From positions 1,184,001-1,248,000 of the forward strand of contig OZ244744.1 of assembly GCA_965219455.1 (NCBI GenBank): DNA of 64,000 nt. Direction: 5' to 3'. This document shows positions 4,884-27,033 of this stretch, piece by piece. Both the position numbers and the translations under genes were made by a program. The DNA is from Candidatus Latescibacterota bacterium (GTDB lineage Bacteria > Latescibacterota > UBA2968 > GCA-2709665). The notes under the pieces were generated by a model. The model was not told where the DNA came from. It saw only the letters and a list, made by a program, of their open reading frames with translations, and made no database searches. Each line of letters starts with the position of its first letter. Within the stretch, counting starts at the first letter, position 1.

Positions 4884-5093
4884 ATGGATTGGCGCGATCA
4901 TATCACAGGGGATCCCGAGATTTTCCATGGTAAGGCGTGTATCGCCGGTACGCGGGTCCTCGTGACCACGGTTTAGGATAATCTTGCGTCGGGCCTGAAT
5001 ACCGAAGAAATTTCGAAGAGTTACACGTCGGTTTCGCGCGAAGCCGTCCTGGCGGCGATCGCCTATGCCGCGGCACTGGCCAACGAACAGTAG
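4884..5093 (+). pseudogene. DUF433-like antitoxin interrupted by an in-frame TAG
   Basis: Translates MDWRDHITGDPEIFHGKACIAGTRVLVTTV*DNLASGLNTEEISKSY...AAIAYAAALANEQ; TAG at 4974-4976 where Leu is expected; absent from the ORF track. Confidence 0.8.
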
Positions 5094-5160: not shown

Positions 5161-8100
5161 ATGAGCGATCCGAATAGACGTAATAGCGAAAACCTCAAGG
5201 ATACACGGTGGGCTAGTGTTATCGAGGATTTGCGCCAATGGCCATCCGATGCTTCGGAATGGGAATCAGACCAGGTCGGAGGATTCGTCGAACAGGTACG
5301 GCTACTTGCCGAGCAGAAGTGCGACGAACAGAAGAAAGCGGGGCGGCTCCATCTCCAACAGGCGTTGGACCAATTGCGAGAAGTCTACGCCAGAGAAATA
5401 GCGTTTTTTGGATTCGAAAGCCTAGGCATAGCCAATTGGCAAGCGGCCAATTGCCCTGCTGATCATGTTTCAGAACGTGCGAAAACGGTCGGAAGTCTGC
5501 AGGAGCAGCTAAATGGGCTTCGCTTGTTAAAGCAACAATCGCCTGAAAACTTCCAAGAAACCCGCAAGCATCGGACGGACTTGAACGACACGGAAGATCG
5601 GATAAACTCACTTGCGATGCAACTCGACCAGGAGTTTGCGGTGGCCGAACCGGAGCCACAACAGACTCTGGATGAGGAAGTTGAAGACGAAGACGATCCC
5701 GGCACGGAACCCCCTAAGCCCGGAAAAGGCACGTCTGGTGACCGCCCAGATTCTGACGAACAACAGGAGGCCAAAAAAGAATCTCGTCAAACCGAAGACG
5801 AATCCAAAAAGGAAACCAGTTTAAAAGAACAAGGTGCCGAAGCTGAACTTTCAGACAAGCAAGAAGTGTCCGAACCAAAGCATTCCCAGCCGGCCGCGCC
5901 TGAACCTCAACCCAAAGATGGAACGCCAACGAAGTTGCGATCGGTTAGGGATGCGGCCGTCCGATTACAGGAAGACAAATCAGATGAGAACTGGGAATCG
6001 TTGGGCTGGAGCCTATTGGCTGAAGAGGATTGGACCGGAGCCTATTGGCTTGCTCATTCTCTGAAAGCAGCAGGCCGCGACGTACCTGTCGCGCCTGAAT
6101 TGCTTTCTGTGCTTCAGGGATCGCGCTGGTTGAAAAATGATACCGACAGTCTAGTCCGCGGCATCTTGGAAATCGCTTCGGATTGGGCTCCTCAAACGAC
6201 TGCGGAAAAGCTACTTGGGTTGGCTGCGGCATTGCGCCCGAGCTTAATTGCCCCATACGCGGGACTCGTCGGTTGGCTCCCTCAAAGGGAGGAAATCAAT
6301 CCTGCGTTGGGCGAATTCGCTGACGCCATCCGCACTTTTGCCCGCGCTGGCTATCCTTTGCAAAGCGAAAATCTGCAGGGAGTTGAAAATCAGGCCGATA
6401 TCGCGGAGAGAATTGCAAATATCGGAAAGCAGGCCCAAAGCCTCCTAGCGAACAATCGAGGCCGTAAATTAAAGATGCTAAGGGCGACAAACGTCCTGCG
6501 TCGTTTGGTGGACCGAGGAGGTGATTTAAACCTCCTATTAACCCCGGTTGTCGAAAATCGCGCCGACGAAATCGATCAGGTGCGGCAGCGCATAAAAGAC
6601 TTCGAAGGGCGCAGGATTGAAGAACGCATCCATCAGATCGACCGAGAGCGAGCGACTGCCCGACCATCCAGACCGATCACTGGCGTTCCTCGCGATCAAT
6701 TGGCACGAAGCATCGAAGAGGCTGTGACGGTAGCGGACCACTGGAGTTCCTTGATTGAGCGGGAAGAGCTAATCAGTACCAAGGGCGACTGGTGGACCGA
6801 TCACGTGAAGGAGCTGCGTGACCGAGCAAGAGATATCCTGCCGGACGTTGAAGCCGAACTTGAGCGAATGCAACGACAGGATCAAAACCCAAAGGAGGCC
6901 GCTTGTGGCCGCGTATTGCAAAAGGCCACAGGGGAAGTTACAGCTATGCTGGGTCTAGATGAACAACACGACAATGAAGACCCGCAAGCCTGGATGTGTA
7001 CCCAAAGCGGCTCATTGAATCGGGCGTTGGCGCGACGTCTGCTGTCGATCCCAGAAGTGTCCCTTGACGACGACGGCTATCCTAGTGAGGATCATATGGC
7101 CGAAATCGCCACGTTCTTGCGCCAATCGCTAGCTGAGGAACGTGTGTTAATTACGGCCTGTAACATTCGCATTGAAAGACAGGATTTTCGCTTCACCGAT
7201 GTATTGCGGAATGCATTGAAGGACGACGAGGAACGCAGGGTATTTGAGGATCGAAACGAAGAGGCTCTCAATGGATCCCGGACGGCTCTATTGGAAAGGG
7301 TCGCCAAAGTGAGGGGCGTGATCGAACAGGGTATGGTGGACGGGCTGCTGGTTGAACAAGAACGTACCACTATGAGTGCCGAGTTGGAAACGGCGGCCAT
7401 TGAAGAGCCTTTGTGTTTCGGACCCCTGTTCCGACGGTTAGCTGATATTGAGCGGCAATTGAACCAAAAGCGCGCCGACCGACTGCAAGAGTTGGAGAGT
7501 AAATGGGCACACATTCGGCAAGTGCTAGAGCAAAAGATTCAAGTTGAGCAGCTAAAAGCAGTAGAGGCATTTATCCATAGAGCTTTTCAACAGAGCGATA
7601 CCAGAGTCGTAGACGAAGGCTTAGCCCACCTACGCGAAGTCCTCCAAGGTGAGGTTGAATGGGAGAGTGGGTGGTTTGCCCCACCGGACGAGCGTGACAT
7701 CTTAAAGGAGTTCCTAGATGCTAGTTCGGGTATCGAATCCGGGCTTTCCAGTTTGGGGAGTGTCAATCAATTGGCCAGTGTGATCGAGAAAGGCAAAACT
7801 TGGGGAAAGGTGGCGTTCGGTGAGTTACCCAAGACCCGCAGAGATGAAGCCGTCAGGGCACTTAAATCCTGGCACGTACTCAAACGCCATCAGGACCAGC
7901 CAACAGTTGCCCATCGGCATGTACCGGTCTTGTTGGCATATCTTGGTTTTCATCTACAGGAGAAAGAATCGGCCGTCAGTGTGAAGAATCGCGGCCGGGA
8001 TTGGCTCCACTGCGAGGTAGATGCGTCGGCCAGCGATCTCGCACGGCCGATCCCTCAGCTGGGCTCGCAAGCCATTGGCTGCTACAATGTGGTATGTCTC

Positions 8101-10452
8101 TGGGAACGTCCTGGAGCCGCCTCGATCGGAGCTTTCTTGCGTGACATAGGACTGGAAACCAAGACGGTCATAGTTTTTTTTCTTGGGCGATTGACTGAGC
8201 GGCGTCGACGCGACATAGCCGCCCGCGCCGGAGAACGGGAGTTGGCTCTGGTGGTTCTAGATGAAGTCCTGCTCGCATTTTTGGCCAGGTTTGACGATAC
8301 CCGCCTTCCAGCTTTCCTGCGAAGTAGCTTGCCCTACGCTGCTCTCAATCCATATACGCCGTTCCAGGCTGGAAATGTACCGCCCGAAATGTACTACGGC
8401 CGCGACAAGATGGTCCGTCAGCTACAAAACGAGGGTAGCTGCATCGTATTCGGTGGGCGACAGTTGGGCAAGTCCGCTCTATTGCGCCAGGTAGAACGCA
8501 CATTTCACCAGCCGGATCGCGAGCGATTTGCATGGGTCGAGGACATCAAGCTAGTGGGAGATGCCCTGGCAGGAGAACAGCCCGACCAGCTATGGATCAA
8601 GTTGCGCGATGGCTTTAAGAAACAATTACTAATTAGAGACAGCATAACGGCGACGCAGCCTGAAAATATCATCAAACACATCCAGAACGCAATGGATAAG
8701 TCTCCTCAACGGCGTGTTCTCGTCCTGTTTGATGAAGCCGATTCCTTCTTGGGTGCCGATGCTCAGAATAACTTTCAAGTCGTCGAAAGACTGAGATCCC
8801 TTATTCAGGAGACACATTCTCGCTTCAAGGTGGTCTTTGCCGGTCTGCATAACGTCCAGCGGTTTAATGATATCCCCAACCAGCCGCTCGCGCACTTCGG
8901 AGAAAACTTACTGGTAGGACCTCTCGAAGCCAATTCCGCGCGGCAGTTGGTGCGGGAACCCTTGGAGACGCTAGGATATCGGTTCGTTGATGAGACCACG
9001 GTGCTCAAAGTCCTTTCCTACACCAATTACCATCCGGGTTTAATACAGTATTTCTGCCATGAACTCGTACGTCGCCTACAAGCCAAAAGGTCCACAGCAG
9101 GGCCGCCTTACAAAGTGCGCTCAGAGGATGTCGAGGCGGTGTATAGATCTTCTCAGGCTCGACAAGTCATTCGTGAACGGCTCGATTGGACCCTGGCACT
9201 GGATTCTCGGTACCAGTGCATCGCTTGGTCCATGATCTATGAGCAAAAAGAGACGCGAGACAGCTATGTCCGTTCATTCAGCGTGAACGAGCTTCTCCAA
9301 CTGACGCGAGAGTGGTGGCCTCAAGGTTTCGATAAGGTGGACAGCGTAGCCTTGCGTGGATTGCTCGGAGAAATGGTCGGCTTGGGCATATTGGTACACA
9401 ACGTGGACGAAAATCTATTCTTGTTACGCAGTCCCAATCTGGTCCGCCTTATGGGTACCGAGGAGGATATAGAAAGCCGTCTGCTGGAGTTATCTGACAA
9501 ATCTCAGCCGACCCAGTTTCAGCCCGATAGTCAGCACCTATTATTAGATGACCAAGGCCGTAGATACAGTCCCTTGACGCTCGTGGAGGAAGGCCGTCTG
9601 CAACATACGCGGCGGTCCGGCGTGAGGCTAGTCTTCGGTTCCCCGGCATTGGGGTTGGACGTGTTGGAACAAGCCTTAAACCGTATGGGAGGCAGTGAGA
9701 TCCCCGCCCAAGAATTGATTCAAGCCAACCGAACCTGTGCTTGGTTGAATTCCCACGCCCGGAAGCAACGAGGGGTCGAGCAATTATTGACCTATGGCCA
9801 GCTCAGGGGCACAGGGGGGTATATGGCCCAATGCGTCTGGGATGTACGGCAGATGTGCGAAGGTTTTAACCAAAGGGCAAGGCGACCTCTGCAAGTAGTT
9901 TTCATCCTCAAACCGGAGGCTGCCTGGACATGGCTGAGGTTGCCAGCGGATCAGCGCACTAGTCTGGAAGACCGGGCTATTTACCTGCGACGCTGGAACG
10001 AAGTTGGAATTCAGCAGCGGTTGAGGCAAGCCGATAAATTGGATTCGCCTGAGGTCTGTCAGTATGTGTTGGAAGCCACCGGGGGATGGCCATACCTCCT
10101 GAATGATCTTCTGCGCAGATGCAGCGACAATGACGATCCCCGTTCCTATGCGGAAGCTCTGGCCAAGGAAATCGCTTGTCCGAGGTCGAAGGTAGGCGGA
10201 GGGTTGTTACAGCAGATTGGATTGGCTTCGCAGGCGGAGTCTCTGCTGGTGTTACAGACTATAGTGAATTGCGGTAAATTCTCAGACGAAGATATAGAGA
10301 CATTGGGTGATCTGGTTGATGGTACCCCTACCCTCAGTATTGAGGACTGCACGTCGGCTGTGGAGTTCTTGAGCCGTTTGGGATGCCTCGAAAAAGGTAA
10401 TGGAGAGTACCGCGTAGAGCCTGTCCTGGGTCGAATAGTTGGACATCTATGA
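5161..10452 (+). CDS. 1763-aa multidomain P-loop NTPase (STAND/AAA-like) with a second, degenerate NTPase module
   Basis: NPYTP..YYGR, Walker A GGRQLGKS (~aa 1098), Walker B VLVLFDEAD, YTNYHPGLIQ; second module FGSPALGLD...ATGGWPYLL; acidic linker ~aa 160-255. Confidence 0.85.
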   Translation: MSDPNRRNSENLKDTRWASVIEDLRQWPSDASEWESDQVGGFVEQVRLLAEQKCDEQKKAGRLHLQQALDQLREVYAREIAFFGFESLGIANWQAANCPADHVSERAKTVGSLQEQLNGLRLLKQQSPENFQETRKHRTDLNDTEDRINSLAMQLDQEFAVAEPEPQQTLDEEVEDEDDPGTEPPKPGKGTSGDRPDSDEQQEAKKESRQTEDESKKETSLKEQGAEAELSDKQEVSEPKHSQPAAPEPQPKDGTPTKLRSVRDAAVRLQEDKSDENWESLGWSLLAEEDWTGAYWLAHSLKAAGRDVPVAPELLSVLQGSRWLKNDTDSLVRGILEIASDWAPQTTAEKLLGLAAALRPSLIAPYAGLVGWLPQREEINPALGEFADAIRTFARAGYPLQSENLQGVENQADIAERIANIGKQAQSLLANNRGRKLKMLRATNVLRRLVDRGGDLNLLLTPVVENRADEIDQVRQRIKDFEGRRIEERIHQIDRERATARPSRPITGVPRDQLARSIEEAVTVADHWSSLIEREELISTKGDWWTDHVKELRDRARDILPDVEAELERMQRQDQNPKEAACGRVLQKATGEVTAMLGLDEQHDNEDPQAWMCTQSGSLNRALARRLLSIPEVSLDDDGYPSEDHMAEIATFLRQSLAEERVLITACNIRIERQDFRFTDVLRNALKDDEERRVFEDRNEEALNGSRTALLERVAKVRGVIEQGMVDGLLVEQERTTMSAELETAAIEEPLCFGPLFRRLADIERQLNQKRADRLQELESKWAHIRQVLEQKIQVEQLKAVEAFIHRAFQQSDTRVVDEGLAHLREVLQGEVEWESGWFAPPDERDILKEFLDASSGIESGLSSLGSVNQLASVIEKGKTWGKVAFGELPKTRRDEAVRALKSWHVLKRHQDQPTVAHRHVPVLLAYLGFHLQEKESAVSVKNRGRDWLHCEVDASASDLARPIPQLGSQAIGCYNVVCLWERPGAASIGAFLRDIGLETKTVIVFFLGRLTERRRRDIAARAGERELALVVLDEVLLAFLARFDDTRLPAFLRSSLPYAALNPYTPFQAGNVPPEMYYGRDKMVRQLQNEGSCIVFGGRQLGKSALLRQVERTFHQPDRERFAWVEDIKLVGDALAGEQPDQLWIKLRDGFKKQLLIRDSITATQPENIIKHIQNAMDKSPQRRVLVLFDEADSFLGADAQNNFQVVERLRSLIQETHSRFKVVFAGLHNVQRFNDIPNQPLAHFGENLLVGPLEANSARQLVREPLETLGYRFVDETTVLKVLSYTNYHPGLIQYFCHELVRRLQAKRSTAGPPYKVRSEDVEAVYRSSQARQVIRERLDWTLALDSRYQCIAWSMIYEQKETRDSYVRSFSVNELLQLTREWWPQGFDKVDSVALRGLLGEMVGLGILVHNVDENLFLLRSPNLVRLMGTEEDIESRLLELSDKSQPTQFQPDSQHLLLDDQGRRYSPLTLVEEGRLQHTRRSGVRLVFGSPALGLDVLEQALNRMGGSEIPAQELIQANRTCAWLNSHARKQRGVEQLLTYGQLRGTGGYMAQCVWDVRQMCEGFNQRARRPLQVVFILKPEAAWTWLRLPADQRTSLEDRAIYLRRWNEVGIQQRLRQADKLDSPEVCQYVLEATGGWPYLLNDLLRRCSDNDDPRSYAEALAKEIACPRSKVGGGLLQQIGLASQAESLLVLQTIVNCGKFSDEDIETLGDLVDGTPTLSIEDCTSAVEFLSRLGCLEKGNGEYRVEPVLGRIVGHL

Positions 10453-11747
10453 ACTTGGAATTGACCAGCTTCTTGATGCAGATGCCGACGGCGCAACGAT
10501 TGTTGGATCTAATAAAGGACGACTTGCGGTGCGGTCGTAGTGTGTTGGGCTTGTTTCCCGAGGGAATCGATTCAAGTCGGCTGCGATCAGCATTATGGGA
10601 TGGGCTCGCATATTGGCACCTGCAAATCCAGGAGATATTTATACCCCAGCTGGATGTCCAAACGCCAGCGGGAGCTTTGGCTCAAGCTCTAGGAGTAGAT
10701 TGGGGTGCCTCCAACGCGCCCCGCACGGTAGAGAATCTTCTGAGGCAAACAAGCTTGCCCGAAATCATGTTTCTAGACGGATTTGATGAACTACCTAAAA
10801 AGGATCAAATCCAGTGGCTTCAATTTGTGGCCCAATGGGCCCAGGTTTGTCAAGGCAAGAACTTCACGGACGACGGTGGCTCCGAGACTCCCCCGGCACT
10901 GTGTCTGCTTGCCCAGGCGTCACAGGTGCCCTATCCACTTCCTCAGACGAATGTATTGCTGTCAATCCGGGTCTGGAGAGGGATCCCCACGACCCTGGAG
11001 ATGCGCCTATTGTGCCGATTGGCATCCGAGCAGGATTCCGGTCCGTTAAGCCGATGGAAAGAGCACACTATTCCAGCCATTGCGGGCTCTGATATAGATC
11101 TGGCCGATTATCTGTGGGCTCAGGAATATCGCGATTGTGTCGAATTGGCGGATCTCCTACGGGCTTTTGGTCAGAGACGCGGCTGGGATCAGACTGAATT
11201 GGAGGATTGGCCTTTACATAACCATCCCCGAAATACCACACTTTTGCAAGAGGATTGGGCGTTACCAAATGCGTTGTATCAGACTTGGGCCCGGGGAATG
11301 GTTCATTGGACCCCGGAATATGGGTTGGAACGCCATAGTGCAGTCTTAGCACTTTTGGATCAAAAAGAATCGTTAGATCATCGATTGTGGCGAGGCCAGG
11401 CGGGATTTCTTTTGCCTGAGATTGACGAAATTCGATTGGGATTGTGTAATCATCTGAACCGTTCGTACGGATTGAACTGGCCTTACAAGTGGCGGGAGCC
11501 GGAGACAGCAATAGAATGCCAGGAAGTTAGGGAGACGCCCTTTGCCTGTCAGTGGGGACATCTGGAATACCTGCTACAGAAATGTCCTAATATACAGGTA
11601 GAACAGCGGTGGCTTCCACTGGTGCGTCAATCGCGACAACTCCGCAATGCAGTGGCACACTATAGGCCGATAACCCTACGGGATTACGAAAGGTTCTGCT
11701 CAGCGGTAAAGAAAGCAACTGCGGCAGGTTTGAAGATAGGTTTGTGA
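10449..11747 (+). CDS. 432-aa protein with a degenerate NTPase-like N-terminus and a putative C-terminal HEPN RNase
   Basis: ATGA overlap with the upstream gene; Walker-B-like IMFLDGFDEL; LRNAVAH (RxxxxH) at 11643-11660 in a helical C-terminal region. Confidence 0.7.
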   Translation: MNLELTSFLMQMPTAQRLLDLIKDDLRCGRSVLGLFPEGIDSSRLRSALWDGLAYWHLQIQEIFIPQLDVQTPAGALAQALGVDWGASNAPRTVENLLRQTSLPEIMFLDGFDELPKKDQIQWLQFVAQWAQVCQGKNFTDDGGSETPPALCLLAQASQVPYPLPQTNVLLSIRVWRGIPTTLEMRLLCRLASEQDSGPLSRWKEHTIPAIAGSDIDLADYLWAQEYRDCVELADLLRAFGQRRGWDQTELEDWPLHNHPRNTTLLQEDWALPNALYQTWARGMVHWTPEYGLERHSAVLALLDQKESLDHRLWRGQAGFLLPEIDEIRLGLCNHLNRSYGLNWPYKWREPETAIECQEVRETPFACQWGHLEYLLQKCPNIQVEQRWLPLVRQSRQLRNAVAHYRPITLRDYERFCSAVKKATAAGLKIGL

Positions 11748-12026: not shown

Positions 12027-14012
12027 ATGCCTGACCACAGCTATTTCACTAACCTGATCTGGCAGATCGCCGATCTTCTACGTGGGCCATACCGGCCTCC
12101 GCAGTACGAGCGCGTTATGTTGCCCATGACCGTGCTTAGGCGATTCGACTGCGTACTTGCCCCCACCAAATCCGGCGTGCTCGCTGAATACGAACGCTCC
12201 CGTGGCAAGTTTGAAGGTCGTGCGCTCGAGGCCAGGTTGAACACCGCCGCAAAGCAGCACTTCCACAACCACTCGCCGCTCGACTTCGAGAAACTCAAGG
12301 GCGACCCAGATAACATCGCCCAGCACCTCGTCAGCTACATCCAGGGCTTTTCGTCCAACGTGCGCCGCATTTTCGAGTATTTCGAGTTTGAGACTGAGAT
12401 CGAGAAGATGCAAGAGTCCAACATCCTCTACCTCGTCGTCTCAAAGTTCTGCGACGTGGACCTCCATCCCGACCGTGTCCCCAACGAGCAAATGGGACTC
12501 CTCTTCGAGAATCTGATCCGTCGATTCAATGAATTGGCAAACGAGACGGCGGGCGACCACTTCACGCCACGAGACGCCATCCGGCTGATGGTGAGCATAT
12601 TGTTCATAAACGACGATAAACTTCTCGCTACGCCGGGTGTAGTGCGCAAGCTTCTCGACCCCGCCTGCGGTACTGGTGGAATGTTGGCCGAAGCACAAAA
12701 TTACCTGCGAGAACACCATAGTGCTGCCCGTCTTTACGTTTACGGACAGGATTACAATCAGCGGGCATTTGCCACTGCCGCTTCTGACATGCTGATGAAA
12801 CAGGTCAACCATAACGGTGGCGGGGATAATGTGCGCTTTGGAGACAGCTTTACGGAGGACCAATTCGAGGGCGACACCTTTGACTACTTTCTTACCAATC
12901 CACCCTTCGGCGTAGACTGGAAAAAACAACGCAATGACGTACGAAATGAGCACGAAAAGCTTGGTTTCGCGGGCCGTTTCGGCGCAGGACTGCCCCGGAT
13001 AAACGACGGATCGATGCTTTTCCTGCAGCACATGGTCCGAAAGTTTGAACCCTTACGTCCGGACGAGCATAAGCATGGTTCTCGCCTTGCCATTGTGTTC
13101 AGCGGCTCGCCCCTCTTCACTGGCGGCGCCGGGTCCGGCGAAAGCGACATTCGCAAGTGGATCATCGAAAACGACTGGCTGGAGGCCATTATCGCCCTGC
13201 CGGAGCAAATGTTTTACAATACAGGCATCGGCACCTATATCTGGATTGTCACCAACCGCAAAGAAGATTTCCGGAAAGGGCGGATTCAGCTAATCGACGC
13301 CCGCGAAATGTGGACGGCTGGGGGAAGTAACGACAACAGGCGCAGTCTGGGCGATAAACGCCGGCACATCAGCGCGGAACATACCGATGAGATTGTGCGA
13401 CTTTACGGTCGGTTCGAGGAATGCGATCGCTCGAAGATTTTCGCAAACGACGACTTCGGCTATACCCGGGTGACCGTGGAGCGCCCCCTGCGTTTGCGCT
13501 ATCAGATGACCTTTGAAGACAAAGCGCGTTTCCTGGACGCATGTCCGTACTTGCTGGATGACGTCCAGGACATAGATAAGGTGTTGGGACGCGAGCCCCA
13601 GCGCGACTGGAATGCCGCATGGGAAAATATCAGCGCTCTCCTGCATAAGCGCCAATCGCGCTGGAAGAAAGTAGAACAGAGGCTCTTCCGAGACGTCTTC
13701 ACTGAGAAAAATTCGGACGCCGAGCCGGTCAGGAAGGATGGCCGAGAGAAAGGATACGAGTCCGACGCCGAGCTGCGAGACTTCGAAAATGTACCGCTCG
13801 CTGAGGACGTCGACGCCTACTTCGAGCGTGAGGTCCGCCCTCACGTCCCCGACGCCTGGATGGACCGCCGAAAGGACAAGGTCGGCTACGAGATCAACTT
13901 CAATCGGCACTTCTACAAGTACACGCCACCGCGCCCGCTGGAGGAAATCGACGCGGATCTGAAGAAAGCGGAAGAGAAGATCGTGCGGTTGTTGAGGGAG
14001 GTGACGGCGTGA
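12027..14012 (+). CDS. hsdM: Type I R-M methyltransferase subunit
   Basis: IWQIADLLRG, GDHFTPRD, LDPACGTGGML, TNPPFG. Confidence 0.95.
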   Translation: MPDHSYFTNLIWQIADLLRGPYRPPQYERVMLPMTVLRRFDCVLAPTKSGVLAEYERSRGKFEGRALEARLNTAAKQHFHNHSPLDFEKLKGDPDNIAQHLVSYIQGFSSNVRRIFEYFEFETEIEKMQESNILYLVVSKFCDVDLHPDRVPNEQMGLLFENLIRRFNELANETAGDHFTPRDAIRLMVSILFINDDKLLATPGVVRKLLDPACGTGGMLAEAQNYLREHHSAARLYVYGQDYNQRAFATAASDMLMKQVNHNGGGDNVRFGDSFTEDQFEGDTFDYFLTNPPFGVDWKKQRNDVRNEHEKLGFAGRFGAGLPRINDGSMLFLQHMVRKFEPLRPDEHKHGSRLAIVFSGSPLFTGGAGSGESDIRKWIIENDWLEAIIALPEQMFYNTGIGTYIWIVTNRKEDFRKGRIQLIDAREMWTAGGSNDNRRSLGDKRRHISAEHTDEIVRLYGRFEECDRSKIFANDDFGYTRVTVERPLRLRYQMTFEDKARFLDACPYLLDDVQDIDKVLGREPQRDWNAAWENISALLHKRQSRWKKVEQRLFRDVFTEKNSDAEPVRKDGREKGYESDAELRDFENVPLAEDVDAYFEREVRPHVPDAWMDRRKDKVGYEINFNRHFYKYTPPRPLEEIDADLKKAEEKIVRLLREVTA

Positions 14013-16851: not shown

Positions 16852-19812
16852 ATGGCTACATTTAAGACACGAGCTCGAACGCTTGACATGCTTGGGCGAC
16901 AGCAGATAGCCGGAATTCCGACTGCGATCAGTGAGTTGTTCAAAAATGCACACGATGCGTATGCCGACCACGTCGAGATCGACTATTTCCGTAGCGACGG
17001 GCTGTTCGTATTGCGTGACGATGGCGTTGGGATGAGTCGGGAGGAATTCGCCCAGCGGTGGCTGACAATTGGAACAGAGAGTAAGCTCAATTCCGGTGGT
17101 ATCGAACCAATTCGGCATGATCCGAACAAACCAATACGACCTATGCTGGGTGAGAAGGGTATCGGTCGTCTGGCTATTTCAACAATTGGTCCTCAAGTTC
17201 TGGTGCTCACCCGCGCCCGGCGCGGAGATACATTGTCCGATCTCACTGCTGCGTTCGTAAACTGGACCCTGTTTGAATGTCCGGGCATCGACCTTGAAGA
17301 CATACAGATTCCCATTCAGACTTTTCCCGGTGGCGACTTACCTTCGTATAAAGAAATACAACAATTGATATCGGCCTTCTCCGAAAATACCCGGCATCTG
17401 AGAGCCAGAATTGGAGACCAATTCTATGACCGAATATCCAGAGACCTTGGTATGTTTCGAGTCAATCCTCAGGACATCGACCGATATCTCGGTGAGCCTA
17501 CATTGAATGGCGCCGGAAGCGGTACTCATTTTATTATTATGCCCGCTTCGGACCTACTCATTGCAGATATCGACGGCGAGCCCCAAGTTGAAACGGCAAC
17601 ACCACTTACAAAGGCCCTGCTGGGATTCACAAATACCATGACGCCGAGACATTCGCCTCCGCCGATTCGAACCGCATTCAGGGACCACAAGACAGAGGAC
17701 CTCGTGAATGATCTTATCGCTGACGGCGAGTTCTTCACGCCAGAGGAGTTCGAAAATGCAGATCATCAAGTCGAGGGCCACTTTGATGAATATGGTCAAT
17801 TCCGTGGAGATGTATTGATATATGGAGAGATAATCAAACAACACGTGATTCCGTGGACCGGTGCTGGTGGTAGTCCGACCCTTTGTGGTCCCTTCTCGGT
17901 AAATTTCGCCGCCATCGAAGGAGTTGCAACATACTCGACACTCCCACGAGAAGATCATGCTCGTATGGCTCAGAAAATGGAAAAAATCGGAGGCTTGTAC
18001 ATCTTCCGGGATGGTGTAAGGATCTTGCCATATGGAAACACGGATTATGATTGGCTCGACATCGAATTCCATCGAACAAAGAGCGCTTATTATTATTACT
18101 TCTCACACCGCAAGATGTTTGGAGCTATCGAAATTGACAGTACAAATAATCCGCGGCTCAACGAAAAGGCTGGAAGAGAGGGATTTAGGGAAAACAAGGC
18201 TTACCGTCAATTCAAGAGTATATTGAAACACTTTATTGTACAAGTCGCCGCGGACTTTTTCCGAAAAGAAGGTGTGCACAGCGAGAGATTCGAAGAACGG
18301 AAGGAGGAGCTTAGTAAGATTGAGTTGGATAGGAGACGAAGAGAAAAATCCGTATCCATAAAGAAGCAGAAAATGAGCAAAGATCTTGCCTGGTTCTTTG
18401 AAAAGTTATCGGCCAATTCTCCGCAGGAAGAAGCCGTGAAGCTCAGCCAGAAATTTGCGCAGGAACTAAAAGTGGCATGCCTAATCTCCGATCCGCAGCA
18501 CGCGGCACAAGAGATTGTCCGGATTGAGCAGGAAGCACATGCGGAACTTAGAAAGATCGAATCCCAATATAAGATTTCGCGACCTCGTATCGGTCTCAGC
18601 AAAGCCATGCAAAAAGAGTGGAATGAGTACACCGCTGCTTTTTCGGATCTTTCGGACGATGTGTTCATTCCCACGCGAGAGTTGATCGGAGAGACCGTTC
18701 GAGAGGAGGCCGAAAGAGCTCGCGTGCAAATTGACCGAAGCCTTCAGGTGAAAACTACCCTTGAAGAGCTTGCGGCGCAGGCCAAGAAGCAGACCAGAGA
18801 CAGTGGAAACATCGTGAAACAGGAAGCACATAGGGTAGCTTCTGGTGTTCGAGACGTGGCGAGTACCTGCCTTAGCGAGGTTGAAGACGAACTACGATCG
18901 GTTGTGAGCGAGTTCCAACGTATAGACGTTTCCAAACTTCAGGACGCCGATTTTGTAGAAACACGAAATACTTTGGAAGCACGCATTCTGGGTGTTGCGG
19001 AAAATAAGTCGAGCTTGCTTGGCTCACTTATTGACCAGTTGAAAGCTGTCGAATTGACCGGGGAGACATCCGCTCTCGATCAACTTGTGGCTATCGAGCA
19101 GCGCAATGTCGCATTGGAAGAGGAAGTTGAAGCCGACCTGCAACTGGCCCAACTCGGAATGGCGGTAGAGATTATCAATCACGAATTTCATGCGACAATC
19201 CGTTCCATTCGTAACAATCTGCGCAGGCTAAAAGCGTGGGCCGATATCAACAAGGACCTCGAAGTACTGTACCACAACATCCGGGCGAGTTTCGATCATC
19301 TGGATGGATACTTGACGCTTTTCACACCGCTTCAACGTAGGCTTTATCGCAGGGCTGTGGATATTCGAGGTTCCGATATTTACACGTTTCTAAGCGATCT
19401 TTTCAGGGAGAGATTCTCACGTCTCGACATCGAATTCCGAAAGACAAGAGCGTTTTCAGAAATGAAAATAAACGGTTACCCTTCATCCTTCTATCCGGTA
19501 TTCGTCAATGTTATTGACAATGCAGTGTACTGGGTTTCCCAGAATAATCCCTCGGAGGAACGCCGGATTGTTCTTGATGCAACAGATGACTTTTTTTTGG
19601 TTGCCGATTCCGGCCCTGGTGTTAACGCAGGGGATAGAGAGGCGATCTTTGAATTCGGCTTCACAAGAAAACCGGGAGGAAGGGGAATGGGGCTGCATAT
19701 TGCCCGAGAGGTACTTCGTCGCGTTGGCTACGATTTGTCTCTACGAGATTCCGAAGATCATAAGGGCGCTACCTTTGCCATCGGCCCCGCGACTCCAACA
19801 TCAGAAGAGTAG
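16852..19812 (+). CDS. GHKL/MORC-like ATPase fused via a coiled coil to a histidine kinase module
   Basis: N-terminal ELFKNAHDA, DDGVGM, GEKGIGRLA; C-terminal H-box IINHEF, N-box NVIDNA, DSGPGV, IFEFGFTRK, GRGMGL. Confidence 0.88.
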   Translation: MATFKTRARTLDMLGRQQIAGIPTAISELFKNAHDAYADHVEIDYFRSDGLFVLRDDGVGMSREEFAQRWLTIGTESKLNSGGIEPIRHDPNKPIRPMLGEKGIGRLAISTIGPQVLVLTRARRGDTLSDLTAAFVNWTLFECPGIDLEDIQIPIQTFPGGDLPSYKEIQQLISAFSENTRHLRARIGDQFYDRISRDLGMFRVNPQDIDRYLGEPTLNGAGSGTHFIIMPASDLLIADIDGEPQVETATPLTKALLGFTNTMTPRHSPPPIRTAFRDHKTEDLVNDLIADGEFFTPEEFENADHQVEGHFDEYGQFRGDVLIYGEIIKQHVIPWTGAGGSPTLCGPFSVNFAAIEGVATYSTLPREDHARMAQKMEKIGGLYIFRDGVRILPYGNTDYDWLDIEFHRTKSAYYYYFSHRKMFGAIEIDSTNNPRLNEKAGREGFRENKAYRQFKSILKHFIVQVAADFFRKEGVHSERFEERKEELSKIELDRRRREKSVSIKKQKMSKDLAWFFEKLSANSPQEEAVKLSQKFAQELKVACLISDPQHAAQEIVRIEQEAHAELRKIESQYKISRPRIGLSKAMQKEWNEYTAAFSDLSDDVFIPTRELIGETVREEAERARVQIDRSLQVKTTLEELAAQAKKQTRDSGNIVKQEAHRVASGVRDVASTCLSEVEDELRSVVSEFQRIDVSKLQDADFVETRNTLEARILGVAENKSSLLGSLIDQLKAVELTGETSALDQLVAIEQRNVALEEEVEADLQLAQLGMAVEIINHEFHATIRSIRNNLRRLKAWADINKDLEVLYHNIRASFDHLDGYLTLFTPLQRRLYRRAVDIRGSDIYTFLSDLFRERFSRLDIEFRKTRAFSEMKINGYPSSFYPVFVNVIDNAVYWVSQNNPSEERRIVLDATDDFFLVADSGPGVNAGDREAIFEFGFTRKPGGRGMGLHIAREVLRRVGYDLSLRDSEDHKGATFAIGPATPTSEE

Positions 19813-19828
19813 ATTGGGAAAAAACCAA

Positions 19829-21412
19829 ATGGATGAATTTAACAAGCGCTGTGCGAAAATTGCAGAGCGTTTTCTCTTAACTGCTGTCATCGTCGATGAT
19901 CAGGCGCAGATATCCGAGTCGCCCACGCCAACTGAGTTGTTAGTGAAACCGGATCGGCATACAATTGGTACTGCACCTGACGAAACGCCTGGGAATAATG
20001 AAGTAACTGCCAACAGCCTAGACGCCAGAACATTGGTAGACTCATTCGCGAAACAAGGATTGATCTGCGCCGTGATAGCCCCGTCAGAAAATGATCCATC
20101 AACCGCCGACACGGTGATGCCAGTTGCGAGGCGGGCTGATATGGTCATTTTGGATTGGCGATTGCATCAAGACGATGGTGAAAAGACTATTGGATTGTTG
20201 ACGCATTTGTTAAGAGACGGGGAAGCCACTCGATTGCGTCTGATCGCGATTTACACTGGACAATACAATCTCATCGAAATAGGAGCAACCCTCAAGGAAA
20301 AACTCGCGCAACAAGGATGGGATTTTCAATCGGACGGCCAGGGCGTCCAGTTATCCTACGGACATTGTCGTATCGTTATTTACGCGAAGTCCCGGACTCC
20401 ACTGGGACCGGAGTTGAGAGACAGGGCAATTTCGGAGGGTGATATTCCGAATCGTCTCATTGGAGATTTCGCTGACATGACACACGGTCTGCTACCCAGT
20501 ATTGCCCTGACCTCGCTTGCAGCGGTGCGCAAGAATGCTCACAAGGTACTCGATAGCTTCTCATCGGAGCTTGACCCTGCGTTCCTCGCACACCGTGCTT
20601 GTCTTCCCGTCCCCGACAATTCCCAGCAACACATTGTCAATCTGCTTGTTAGCGAGCTACACGCAATCATGGACGACGCTTCGACACAAGAGTGTCCGGC
20701 GAGTATTGAGGCCATTAGGGAATGGCTATTATCAAGATTCGGACAAGAAATGATATTTGAATTTGGGCCGAAAAAGAAGCTATCTTTCGACAAAACTGTT
20801 TCACTTATCCAATGTGGGCTGGACAAGAGTGATATATTGAGTCGTAAAGACTTCGAAATCTTATCGTCTCGATTTCAGATAAATGGTGAGGCTTCAGTAG
20901 AGCTCGACCAACAGCTGGCATGGATGTTTAATTTTCGGACAGTGAGTAATTCTCCACCTCCAATTCTTCAATTGGGTACTGCTCTCGAGAAACGGAATCG
21001 AGAAGATGGAAACGCCCTGTATCTATGTATGAGGCCAAGATGCGACAGCCTGCGGTTGCAGAATGCGGAGACATTCCTCTTATTGCCATTAATCGATCCA
21101 GTCAGAGATACGATTCAGCTAGTTCTGAAAACAGAAAAGGGCGAATATTCGCGCCGAAGTCTTTGCACGAGTCCGTCCCAATGGCTGTTGGTAGAATTCG
21201 CACCGGACGATTCGAAAAAGTGTGTGGTTGCAGGAAAAGGCGCGGACGGGCAGTTTTCCTTCACGAGCACGAACGGAACCAGATTCAATTGGATCGGAGA
21301 ACTCAAGGCGGAATTCGCTCAGCGCGTGGCCCAACATTTCGCTTCAGGATTGTCACGAGTAGCTACGGACAACTCCGAATGGCTTAGAAGACATGAAGGG
21401 TCAGGTCGTTGA
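19829..21412 (+). CDS. Receiver-domain protein (527 aa) with an uncharacterised C-terminal region
   Basis: AVIVDD, MVILDW (phospho-acceptor Asp), IYTG, YAK; ATG 17 nt after the kinase stop. Confidence 0.8.
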   Translation: MDEFNKRCAKIAERFLLTAVIVDDQAQISESPTPTELLVKPDRHTIGTAPDETPGNNEVTANSLDARTLVDSFAKQGLICAVIAPSENDPSTADTVMPVARRADMVILDWRLHQDDGEKTIGLLTHLLRDGEATRLRLIAIYTGQYNLIEIGATLKEKLAQQGWDFQSDGQGVQLSYGHCRIVIYAKSRTPLGPELRDRAISEGDIPNRLIGDFADMTHGLLPSIALTSLAAVRKNAHKVLDSFSSELDPAFLAHRACLPVPDNSQQHIVNLLVSELHAIMDDASTQECPASIEAIREWLLSRFGQEMIFEFGPKKKLSFDKTVSLIQCGLDKSDILSRKDFEILSSRFQINGEASVELDQQLAWMFNFRTVSNSPPPILQLGTALEKRNREDGNALYLCMRPRCDSLRLQNAETFLLLPLIDPVRDTIQLVLKTEKGEYSRRSLCTSPSQWLLVEFAPDDSKKCVVAGKGADGQFSFTSTNGTRFNWIGELKAEFAQRVAQHFASGLSRVATDNSEWLRRHEGSGR

Positions 21413-23496: not shown

Positions 23497-26400
23497 ATGA
23501 GCCAAACCACTGAAACAGCCTTCGAGACCGTCATCGAAGCGCATCTACTGGCGAGTGGTTACGTTCGGGTCGCGGGAGATGAGTTCGACCGCGACCGCGC
23601 CATCTTCCCCGACACCGTCCTCGCCTTCATCCGAAAAACCCAGCCCGTAGAATGGGCCAGATTGGAGGCGCTGCACGGTGATAGAACGGGAGAGCAGGTT
23701 CTCACGGACCTTTGCAAGTGGATGGACACGAACGGTTCGCTCGCTACGTTGCGACACGGCTTCAAATGCTACGGGCGCACACTCTATCCCGCATTCTTCA
23801 AGGCCGCTCATGAGTTGAACCCGGAACTCGAAGCCCGCTATGCGGCAAACCGGCTTGGAATCACCCGCCAACTTCGTTACTCACCTCGATCAGAGAAGTC
23901 CCTCGACGTTACGCTAAGTCTGAACGGTATACCTGTCGGTACGGTTGAACTCAAAAATCCCCTTACCGGGCAAACAGTTGACGACGCATTGCGCCAGTAT
24001 CGTCGGGATCGTGATCCCAGAGAACCGATTTTCGAGTTCAAACGGCGTTCGCTCGTTCATTTCGCTGTCGACACCGAGTGCGTACGCATGACCACTCGAC
24101 TGGCCGGGGGCGCGACCCAGTTTCTACCGTTCGACAAAGGGAATGATGGCGGGGCGGGAAACCCGCCCGATCCGAACGGGCGGAACTATCGGACGTCATA
24201 CCTCTGGGAGGAAGTGTTCGAACGCGACAGCCTGCTCGACATTCTCGCACGCTATATCCATCTGCAGACCGAGGAAAAACGCGACGACCAGGGCCGAATG
24301 GTGAAGGTCGAGTCGATGATCTTCCCGAGATATCACCAACTCGATGCCGTCCGGCTGTTGGTGAAAACGGCTCGCGAAGAGGAGGTCGGAAATAACTACC
24401 TTATCGAACACTCGGCGGGCAGCGGCAAGAGCAACACCATCGGCTGGCTTGCGCACCGCCTCGCTTGCCTGCACAACAAGTCAAATGAGCGCGTTTTCGA
24501 TAGCGTGATCGTCGTGACTGACCGCGTCGTCCTGGACCAGCAACTGCAAGACACCATCTACCAATTTGAACACAAGCATGGCGTGGTCCAGAAGATCGAC
24601 GAACGGTCTCGGCAGCTCGCCGAAGCCCTTGAGACGGCAGTCCCGATCATCATCACCACACTTCAGAAATTTCCTTTCGTCTCACAACATTTGCTTAAGA
24701 TGACCGAGGAAAGAGGCGAAAACGGGTCCGGTACGCTTCCTTCACGGCGCTGTGCAGTCATCGTCGATGAGGCGCACAGTTCGCAGGGCGGGGAGACCTC
24801 GACGCATCTCAGGGAGATCCTCGGGGGAGAAGATCTTCGGGAGGAGGCACGCCGACGCGCGGAGGAGGAGGGGAGCGAAGAACTCGAAGAATTATTCCGC
24901 AGTATGGCCAAGCGCGGCAGGCAGGCAAATCTGAGTTTCTTTGCGTTCACGGCGACGCCCAAACACAGGACACTTGCCGTGTTTGGCCGCGACGGTGAGC
25001 AATTCCATAAATACACGATGCGGCAGGCAATCGAGGAAGGATTCATCCTCGACGTTCTTGAGCACTACACGACCTATTCGACATACTACAAGCTCCTGAA
25101 AGACTGCGAGGAAGATCCGAACGTCGAGCGTAAGCCGGCTGCGCGCGCACTGGTGCAATTTATGCGGCTGCACCCATACAACATCGCGCAAAAAACCCAA
25201 GTAATGGTTGAACATTTCCAGACCGTTACACGGCACAAGATCGGCGGCAGAGCCAAGGCTATGGTGGTGACAGGCTCGCGCCTGGAAGCTGTGCGTTACA
25301 AGCTGAGTTTTGATGATTACATTGAAAAGAAGCGATATCCGATCAAAACGCTGGTCGCGTTCTCGGGTACCGTACAAGACGACAAATTTCCGGGCGTCGA
25401 GTTCACCGAAGTAAAGATGAACGAAGGTATTCGCGAGACGGAACTTCCGGAGAAGTTCGCTACACAGCATTATCAGGTGCTGCTGGTGGCGGAAAAGTAC
25501 CAGACCGGTTTCGATCAGCCGCTACTTCACACGATGTACGTCGACAAGCGACTCGCGGGCATCCAGGCCGTACAGACGCTTTCGCGCCTGAACCGCACCC
25601 ATCCTCTCAAAGAGGACACGTTTGTGCTGGACTTCGTCAATGACCGGGAAGAGATCCGGGAGGCGTTTAAGGTCTATTACGAAGGCGCGGAGATGGGCGA
25701 GGAAGTCGATCCCGCCAGAATGTACGAGGTAAAAGGGGACCTCGACGCGTCAGGGATCTATCTCGATGAGGAAATCAAAAGGTTTTGTGCAGTATATTTT
25801 AAACCCAGGCAGCGGCAGAGCGTCCAAGACCACAAGGAAATGAACGCCGCGCTTGATCCCGCAGTCACACGCTTTAGCGAAATGTGGGAAGAAAATGAAG
25901 ACGGGGCGGAACTCCTTCGCGGACAGATCCAGGCGTTCCGCAACCTCTATGGGTTCTTGAGCCAGATCATTCCGTACCAGGACTCGGACCTGGAACGCCT
26001 GCATGTGTTCCTTCGACATCTGGCGCCGAAACTGCGAAAACGCAGGAGCGGCCCGGCCTATCATTTTGACGACGACGTGCGACTTGAATACTACCGGCTG
26101 CAGAAGATCAGCGAAGGCTCGATTTCCCTGGCTGAGGGGGACGCGCATGCCCTGGACGGACCAAAAGAGGTCGGCAGCGGCGAATTACACGAAGAGTCGG
26201 TGGCGCTATCCCAACTGATCGACATCGTTAACGAGCGCTTTGGGACCGACTTCAACCAGGCCGACCAACTCTTCTTTGATCACATCGTCGAGGCCGCAAT
26301 TGCCGACGATGGAATGCGTCAGGCGGCAGCGGTAAACCCCGAGGACAAATTCGAACTGGTGTTCAGAAGTCTACTGGATCAAATCTTCGTCGAACGCATG

Positions 26401-27033
26401 GATCAGAACGAGGCGATCTTTCAGCGATATATGAACGACGACTCATTCCAGAATACTGTCCGCAATTGGATGACTGCCGAAGCCTATCGACGGCTGCGTT
26501 CCGACTTGGCTGTAACAGAAGAAACAGCGACAGATCCCGGGTTCCCGGCCGCACTTCGACTGGTTGAAGGCCAGCCAGAGGAACGATACGTTACATGTGT
26601 GCCGTTTGTTCCGCTCAAAGCGGCCGCTGGCGCATTCGGCGATCCACAGCACATCGAGGACGGCGAATTCGAATGGGCATCCGTGGATTCTCGCCATCGT
26701 CTCCGGCCGGGTATGTTTGTCGCGCAGATCGTCGGACGATCAATGGAACCCGCGATCCCCAATGGAGCGTATGGCTTATTTCGTGCTCCGGTCGAAGGTA
26801 CACGTCAGGGAAAGACCGTCCTGGTGCAACTCAGCGACGCAACCGATCCCGAAACAGGCCAGCGCTACACCATCAAGCGTTATCACAGCGAGAAGATCCA
26901 ATATGGCGAATCCTGGCGGCACGACGTCATTACCCTCCGGCCCAACAATCCCGAATTCGAACCCATCGTCCTGAACGAGAGGGATGAAGGGGAGCTTCAG
27001 GTCTTGGCGGAGTTGTTGGAAGTTATAAGTTAA
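23497..27033 (+). CDS. hsdR: Type I R-M restriction subunit with a C-terminal LexA-like S24 peptidase domain
   Basis: [15 protein letters not shown] nuclease, [24 protein letters not shown]; tail VPLKAAAG...GRSMEP...TIKR. Confidence 0.93.

Follow-up and report, generated by a model that had tools for sequence, protein, structure and literature searches.

Two overlapping genes in a 64,000-nucleotide stretch of a Candidatus Latescibacterota bacterium genome (assembly GCA_965219455.1, contig OZ244744.1, positions 1,184,001 to 1,248,000 of the forward strand; this whole stretch is called the window below) represent a widespread, unnamed, and uncharacterised variant of the conflict systems that join a STAND (signal transduction ATPase with numerous domains) protein to a HEPN domain supplied in trans, a design that was itself already predicted in 2021. 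Gene coupling, conserved ATPase and Rx4H residues, predicted folds, and a sporadic distribution across phyla are the observations reported here, and we lean towards reading the pair as a self-contained two-gene conflict module of nucleotide-binding leucine-rich-repeat receptor (NLR)/STAND type, directed against phages or other mobile elements and having its effector in trans. An earlier note on this DNA had pointed to the two genes and proposed that three NTPase-like modules, only one of them catalytic, activate a HEPN RNase; its observation is confirmed here and its interpretation is partly supported.

Two coupled genes and their modules

Both open reading frames (ORFs) named in the earlier note were recovered, together with the ATGA at 10449-10452 in which the stop codon of gene 1 and the start codon of gene 2 overlap, the 279-nucleotide (nt) gap between gene 2 and hsdM, and every motif that had been quoted from the two translations (Table 1). 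A Shine-Dalgarno-like GAGGG stands a few bases 5' of the gene 1 ATG. The expectation that the two genes co-occur elsewhere was borne out in two surveys. Based on gene 2 (28 loci in contigs from one genome per species), a gene 1 homologue was found directly upstream in 27 loci, mostly with a 4-nt overlap; based on gene 1 (the best 80 of 545 confirmed metagenome loci), a gene 2 homologue was found directly downstream in 75, and in three of the five loci without one no more than 289 nt follow gene 1. With hundreds of homologues for both proteins, such recurring pairing puts the original observation far beyond chance. Across phyla, the pair has no conserved third partner gene. A complex prediction for gene 1 residues 1070-1763 with gene 2 residues 1-300 (score 0.01, mark 0.32, run without controls) is neutral on binding.

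The single exception in the gene 2-based survey, L027, carries the HEPN-type domain alone, on a 616-amino-acid (aa) protein that over its final 151 residues shares 48% identity with the gene 2 domain, which is as expected of a portable effector; the protein belongs to a three-gene cluster (L027:238-10477) with a 1426-aa AAA_22+TPR protein and an 837-aa NurA-domain protein. Some loci (L002, L010, L012, L016, L023, and L026) have gene 1 or gene 2 in split or decayed form. At one of them, in a close relative whose gene 2 is 83% identical (L016:6110-7326), gene 1 is divided into ORFs of 876 and 892 aa with a 297-aa ORF between them, and this looks like an insertion disrupting the putative sensor gene.

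Gene 1 holds the one intact NTPase of the pair. According to Leipe et al. in 2004, the nucleotide-binding domain of STAND proteins reportedly precedes a helical domain, after which comes a winged helix; Apaf-1, CED-4, and the NLRs are built this way. The same order is predicted for module 1 of gene 1, which has both the Walker A and the Walker B motif of P-loop NTPases, each invariant among the homologues aligned, and R1234 is kept in 43/44 of them. The remaining motifs of gene 1 begin at residues 1078 (YYGR), 1288 (TNYHP), 1492 (FGSPALGLD), and 1640 (TGGWP), and LGEMVGLGIL is also present. Among Pfam families, only generic P-loop ones come up for gene 1: AAA_22 matches at E 2.8e-8, with 40 bits on module 1 against a cut-off of 27, and AAA_16, nSTAND6, and nSTAND3 stay below threshold. 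The nSTAND1 family (PF20703) matches isolated module 1 at 27.3 bits against a cut-off of 27.1 (model positions 14-239 of 379) and at 29.8 bits in a six-frame search, with no listing for full-length gene 1 at E <= 1.

Module 2 of gene 1, for which Pfam has no family, shows no P-loop lysine throughout its family, and its consensus at that position reads F-A-S-E-A-L-G-L, with no K and no GK[ST]. In the predicted model (residues 900-1763, built from the 44-sequence alignment, mean predicted local distance difference test score (pLDDT) 81.6), strands and helices alternate and are followed by a helical part with TGGWP and a winged-helix-like terminal hairpin-helix. Foldseek and VIA-align returned tandem AAA+ proteins across both modules (p97, ClpA/C, Pex1/6, and VAT; poor root-mean-square deviation of ~20 Å), and because these match across both, module 2 is plausibly AAA+/STAND-like. 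These fold searches were run on whole models, and most of what they returned reflects the ATPase domains.

Upstream of the ATPase half, in the N-terminal part that the earlier note took to be helical, residues 255-900 evolve faster than the ATPase half: they share ~30-36% identity with distant homologues, whose identity over residues 900-1763 is 45-50%. No Pfam family was found for this region beyond a weak ATG14 coiled-coil match (E 0.0015), nor any PDB sequence match for the N-terminal region, nor a usable ESM Atlas match for residues 255-1040. The small alpha/beta domain that precedes module 1 has conserved loops (C-x-W-x-R-P and P-x-P-x-x-G-S) and no conserved acidic/lysine triad in the 44-sequence alignment; its topology may, on our own reading, be restriction-endonuclease-like.

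Gene 2 was modelled with a pLDDT of 89.7 and a predicted template modelling score (pTM) of 0.87. Like module 2 of gene 1, its N-terminal STAND/AAA+ fold has no P-loop lysine throughout the family (GRSVLGLFPEG in the window's protein), so the claim of three NTPase-like modules with only one intact holds. The Walker-B-like FLDGFD noted earlier in gene 2 is indeed present and is not conserved, as position 110 is D in 22 of 88 gene 2 sequences, E in 15, K in eight, and T in seven. A Pfam search with full-length gene 2 returned no family. BLASTP detected no similarity between gene 2 and gene 1, and hhalign detected none among module 1, module 2, the pre-ATPase domain, and the gene 2 N-terminal domain (the best, winged helix against winged helix, at E 0.053); an origin of the three modules by internal duplication finds no support from either program.

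The C-terminal domain of gene 2 carries the Rx4-6H motif of the HEPN superfamily. Across the 88 sequences R399 and H404 are both invariant (88/88), N400 occurs in 81/88 and A403 in 82/88, so the RNxxAH on which the earlier note had built is conserved; R312, W314, and R329 are near-invariant or invariant too, and RNRIAH stands in place of RNAVAH in a 21%-identical copy on a Salinibacter plasmid. The domain also aligns with Swt1-like HEPN profiles. An hhalign comparison of the 88 gene 2 C-terminal domains with 16 bona fide HEPN_Swt1 domains from same-phylum genomes gave 74.1% probability (E 2.8e-5) over 97 columns, which run from position 9 to position 113 of a domain of 115; the probability was 0.1-1.3% in four control alignments made with parts of this locus, and an earlier comparison with 24 gene 2 domains had given 50.8% over 39 columns. 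HEPN_Swt1 matches 10 of 37 gene 2 members weakly (best E 0.0018), and ESM Atlas provided weak leads for the C-terminus (score 0.85, clusters with 18-19% HEPN_Swt1). Support at the profile level is moderate, not decisive, and from this alignment together with the motif we take the domain, with moderate confidence, to be a divergent Swt1-like HEPN.

Alternatively, the domain could be a non-nuclease, RNA- or protein-binding helical domain, with the output of the pair lying elsewhere, for instance in remodelling powered by ATP or in an ability of the inactive STAND modules or the gene 1 alpha/beta domain to bind nucleic acids. Such a reading would suit the below-threshold Pfam match to HEPN_Swt1, the eukaryotic Swt1 HEPN that is itself thought inactive in the portion of Anantharaman et al. 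2013 (PMC3710099) cited here, and the proposal, in the passages drawn on from Kaur et al. 2021 (PMC8195603), that inactive STAND modules are nucleic-acid receptors. We nonetheless judge it improbable, because an arginine and a histidine invariant in 88/88 sequences, with the asparagine next to the arginine in 81/88 and the pattern kept even in the plasmid copy, are what one would expect of a catalytic site rather than a mere scaffold, and because the gene 1 alpha/beta domain has no conserved acidic or lysine residues.

Nothing meaningful came out of PDB when it was searched by sequence with both proteins and with two profiles, one of the gene 2 C-terminus and one of whole gene 1; the best matches, at E 0.15-0.75, were unrelated proteins. 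Elsewhere in the window's own genome, a separate locus (L029, G000:C1:1899876-1900217, minus strand) matches HEPN_Swt1 at 123.6 bits inside a 1112-aa open frame, and relatives repeatedly have comparable frames of ~1110 aa; judged from its length and domain, this may be the HEPN-DUF499 ATPase type of the BREX-related literature.

Table 1. Features of the gene pair and of the adjacent hsdM, in positions of the window
Feature	Position	Strand	Description
Gene 1 (P0001)	5161..10452	+	1763-aa multidomain protein; from ORF list and translation
N-terminal stretch, residues 1-254	5161..5922	+	Charged, low-complexity, poorly conserved; no Pfam family; consensus mostly x
Candidate sensor region, residues 255-900	5923..7860	+	Conserved among homologues
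Small alpha/beta domain before the ATPase, residues ~929-1029	7945..8247	+	From secondary structure of the predicted model and conserved columns
Active STAND/ORC-like NTPase module 1, residues 1063-1433	8347..9459	+	Nucleotide-binding domain, helical domain with TNYHPG, winged helix
Walker A GGRQLGKS (K1104), residues 1098-1105	8452..8475	+	Invariant in 44/44 aligned homologues
Walker B LFDEAD (D1191, E1192, D1194), residues 1189-1194	8725..8742	+	D-E-A-D invariant in 44/44
Degenerate STAND/AAA+-like module 2, residues ~1459-1763	9535..10449	+	Lacks the P-loop lysine, keeps TGGWP
Gene 2 (P0002)	10449..11747	+	432-aa partner; from ORF list and translation
Inactive STAND/AAA+ fold, gene 2 residues 1-300	10449..11348	+	No Walker A lysine; Walker B position unconserved
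Swt1-like HEPN-type domain, gene 2 residues 306-425	11364..11723	+	All-helical in the predicted model; predicted RNase effector
Rx4H motif RNAVAH (R399...H404)	11643..11660	+	End of the penultimate helix in the predicted model
hsdM	12027-14012		N6_Mtase 1.6e-51, HsdM_N 1.6e-25

Spread, neighbourhoods, and the island in the window

The family is large. An exhaustive profile search found 1551 gene 2 representatives (50% identity) at E <= 0.001, of which 983 remain at a threshold of 1e-10 and 421 at 1e-30; nearly all of the best 150 are full length (~400-460 aa). A word-indexed search found 102 clusters. For the ATPase half of gene 1, more than 1722 homologues of 969-3086 aa were found at E <= 0.001 among 8000 candidates scored. 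The pair occurs in metagenome-assembled genomes labelled Latescibacterota, Binatia, Armatimonadota, Entotheonella, Blastocatellia (Acidobacteriota), Chloroflexota, Bacillota, Desulfovibrionaceae, Burkholderiales, and Pirellulaceae, and is patchy in the window's own phylum (9 of the 151 genomes sampled) and genus (3/15). It is accessory and mobile in character, and horizontally spread.

A distant copy (L159; 1927 aa + 377 aa, gene 2 identity 21%) lies on the Salinibacter ruber plasmid pSR118 (NZ_CP030363.1 42897-49816), where it adjoins a transposase and a DUF3320 protein and keeps GGRQLGKT and RNRIAH. Its gene 2 lacks the insert that the window's protein has between the first and second HEPN helices. 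Because Salinibacter ruber is cultivable, this copy offers an experimental entry point. The two plasmid genes are annotated as "ATP-binding protein" and "hypothetical protein", and public annotation of the family is everywhere one or the other; with nothing more than this to go by, catalogues such as PADLOC 2.0 and NCBIfam 2026 would miss the family.

Defence genes adjoin the pair at several loci, including SIR2-HerA at L013, DEAD/MZB helicases at L023 and L024, and DrmE at L136, and BrxL, SNF2, and methylase genes do so at some. Neighbours were tallied over 122 ORFs at 52 loci, with families taken by member count and no background set; L027, which has no pair, was left out, and 27 of 149 ORFs were dropped, all of them from the near-syntenic Latescibacterota loci L001, L002, L006, L008, L009, and L016 apart from five ORFs annotated singly. 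A role as an accessory of transposition, suggested by AAA_22/TniB-type matches in two homologues, was rejected as no transposase is conserved nearby.

Within the window, the pair opens a low-GC stretch (~5000-29000; GC 0.47-0.58, compared with ~0.60-0.62 on both sides) that also holds hsdM, hsdS, vsr, dcm, a DUF6575 gene, and hsdR. Given that the pair lies directly upstream of hsdM here and in the close relatives L009 and L016, its genes could be taken to encode additional subunits for the type I restriction-modification (RM) system next to it. We consider this extremely unlikely: the 279-nt gap separates the pair from hsdM, no type I RM gene stands beside the pair in the other phyla examined, N6_Mtase occurs once among the 122 neighbour ORFs, and linkage to hsdR, hsdM, and hsdS is confined to the window and its close relatives.

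Several other genes of the window are described here in their own right. Just upstream of gene 1, a DUF433 gene (4884-5092, plus strand; 67.8 bits, model positions 1-56 of 56) has an in-frame TAG at codon 31, so that it is a pseudogene or needs read-through. Between hsdM/hsdS and hsdR lie vsr, dcm, a histidine-kinase-like gene, a receiver-domain gene, and the DUF6575 gene; the kinase-like gene and the receiver gene, between dcm and hsdR, form a HEF_HK/Response_reg_2 two-component-like conflict pair (16852-21412, plus strand), in which a 986-aa HATPase_c_3/HEF_HK/HATPase_c protein is followed by an overlapping 634-aa Response_reg_2 ORF. The hsdR gene (23497-27033, plus strand; HSDR_N, SWI2_SNF2, ResIII, T1R_D3-like) has an unusual fusion to a C-terminal Peptidase_S24 domain (LexA/UmuD-like). 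Just beyond the low-GC island, at a GC of ~0.60, a gene on the minus strand (29541-34808) encodes a 1755-aa protein with a DEAD/Helicase_C helicase and a UvrD-type helicase. No tRNA genes were found within the window.

Proposed mechanism and its alternatives

Under the reading that we favour, gene 1 would act as sensor and switch, with a STAND ATPase module that works and another that is a fossil, and its large, faster-evolving N-terminal region would probably recognise the trigger. Gene 2 would be an adaptor-effector, i.e., a third fossil STAND module that bears the Swt1-like HEPN RNase domain. On binding of the trigger, the active module may bind or exchange ATP and oligomerise, and the inactive STAND modules of both proteins may pack into the same assembly. 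HEPN RNases need to dimerise to form their composite Rx4-6H active site, and the assembly could bring the HEPN domains together so that this site forms; cleavage of RNA would then arrest growth of the infected cell (abortive infection).

A bolder version, which we offer tentatively, sees a mixed "resistosome" in which a giant sensor with one live and one fossil STAND module nucleates assembly with a fossil-STAND-HEPN executioner encoded by its own gene. In that case the inactive modules would be pure assembly interfaces, the N-terminal 900 residues a new trigger-recognition domain, and the family a large, unrecognised, bacterial NLR-like one, a counterpart of sensor/helper NLR pairs or of NAIP/NLRC4. 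Should the mechanism be true, the pair would be a natural example of labour divided between an active STAND switch and inactive STAND adaptors. The principle of active and inactive modules is known from the origin recognition complex (ORC), BREX BrxB/BrxC, and paired NLRs, and to our knowledge it has not been worked out for a HEPN-based bacterial system. Likewise, the ~650-residue conserved region near the N-terminus of gene 1, with no detectable relatives of known structure, may be a new type of sensor.

Several points weigh against reading the pair as a conflict module of this kind. First, no experimental evidence for defence by any family member was found in the literature. Second, the HEPN assignment has a cost, as the window's domain reaches 13.9 bits against the 27.5-bit cut-off of HEPN_Swt1 (PF18731; E 0.49 in a genome search), and the fold searches with gene 2 were filled by its N-terminal domain, so that the C-terminal one was barely sampled. 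Third, the STAND-like modules lack mutual sequence similarity, which makes their common descent and homotypic packing assumptions. Fourth, few of the 122 neighbours are defence-like (3-4 helicases, one BrxL, two methylases, and two PDDEXK_9), many are housekeeping genes (e.g., ammonium transporter, peptide deformylase, transglycosylase, RsgA, and RsmB), and the copies in several genomes of Latescibacterota interrupt an operon for an ABC sugar transporter. Finally, 34 pattern matches in viral contigs included zero relatives and phage records gave no match; such absence from phage collections lends no support to a prophage hotspot and is otherwise neutral for defence.

On defence-island context the outcome is divided: the association is real in places, clear in the window and a few loci, yet mixed overall and statistically not established. 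The many copies amid housekeeping genes are what would be expected if the pair were instead a selfish addiction or stress module (toxin-antitoxin (TA)-like, with gene 1 restraining a HEPN toxin) or a host regulator of RNA metabolism, with no immune role. ATGA translational coupling is typical of TA pairs too, and HEPN toxins are common in TA systems, as stated in the part of Anantharaman et al. 2013 (PMC3710099) consulted. We find this unlikely all the same, since an ATPase of 1763 aa, conserved also over its N-terminal 900 residues, far exceeds the needs of an antitoxin, the active ATPase is strictly conserved, the distribution is sporadic and crosses phyla, and several loci are plainly defence islands.

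Comparison with known systems

As the earlier note had suspected, the pair matches no named system in PADLOC 2.0, NCBIfam, or Pfam. In PADLOC-DB 2.0, gene 1 has a single match at the P-loop level (PDC-S01, E 0.0079) and gene 2 has none, and NCBIfam has nothing above threshold for either protein. No description of the pair was found in the literature, in a search that did not cover supplementary lists (e.g., the 589 STAND clades of Lee et al. 2026), which may hold the family.

The claim of a new design did not survive this comparison. Kaur et al. 2021 (eLife 10:e70394, PMC8195603) predicted, in the passages used here, a mobile two-gene operon that combines an active nSTAND2 with an eroded nSTAND2 fused to HEPN or GT4. 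The two systems are alike in having STAND modules in both products, one of them eroded and fused to an effector (often a HEPN RNase), and a hetero-multimer was proposed there as well (PMC8195603, same passages); a conserved arginine finger in both proteins also belongs to the definition of the nSTAND2 system. The present pair likewise has a STAND module in each protein, the inactive one fused to HEPN. From this shared logic (as far as those passages of PMC8195603 describe it) it might seem that the pair is an ordinary member of the nSTAND2 system, which we regard as very unlikely. A search of the window's genome with the nSTAND2 family (PF20702) stayed empty even with a limit of E <= 10, although this model does find true pairs in 10 of 151 same-phylum genomes; module 1 of gene 1 instead reaches the cut-offs of nSTAND1 (narrowly) and AAA_22; and true nSTAND2 pairs are small (e.g., 341 aa + 596 aa, both with Walker A) and match the gene 1 and gene 2 profiles at the P-loop level only (best 13 bits). 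Further, the sensor of this pair is a giant (1763 aa compared with ~340-940 aa in nSTAND2 examples), with a large N-terminal region and tandem active and inactive modules unlike those of the nSTAND2 system, and its effector is always of HEPN type in ~100 loci, among which no GT4 variants were seen. Being built on a different STAND family, the pair is a variant of a known design and not a member of nSTAND2. Genuine nSTAND2 genes were observed in another same-phylum family (loci L149-L158), some as adjacent pairs, such as the 341-aa + 596-aa pair at L154 (G078:C1:1380661-1384428) with Walker A in both. Names here follow the Pfam copies used (PF20702 is nSTAND2 and PF20703 is nSTAND1); a 2026 paper in Genome Biology and Evolution (GBE), in the part cited, has them swapped (PF20702 as nSTAND1, PF20703 as nSTAND2).

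Avs proteins, in the portion of Lee et al. 2026 drawn on, are single chains with an N-terminal effector, an ATPase, and a C-terminal sensor. Unlike in Avs/AVAST, the large non-ATPase region of this pair is N-terminal and the effector sits on a separate protein with an inactive STAND module, and no PADLOC Avs model matches. A parallel to the division between two chains is BREX, where, in the text of PMC12839542 used here, an active ORC/STAND ATPase (BrxC) has a separate inactive STAND partner (BrxB). Unlike BREX, this pair has no PglZ, PglX, or BrxL conserved beside it (one BrxL among the 122 neighbours) and its effector is of HEPN type; no PADLOC BREX model matches either protein.

Swt1-like HEPN domains joined to AAA+/STAND ATPases were described by Anantharaman et al. 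2013 (PMC3710099), whose examples, in the part consulted, include Ava_2192/DUF499-HEPN and STAND-TPR-HEPN. The present pair resembles these in its Swt1/Abi2-class HEPN, its RNxxAH-type motif, and its AAA+/STAND partner in a putative conflict system. The fusions described there place HEPN on an active ATPase, usually N-terminally, whereas in this pair HEPN follows an inactive module at the C-terminal end of gene 2 and the product of gene 1 supplies the active ATPase.

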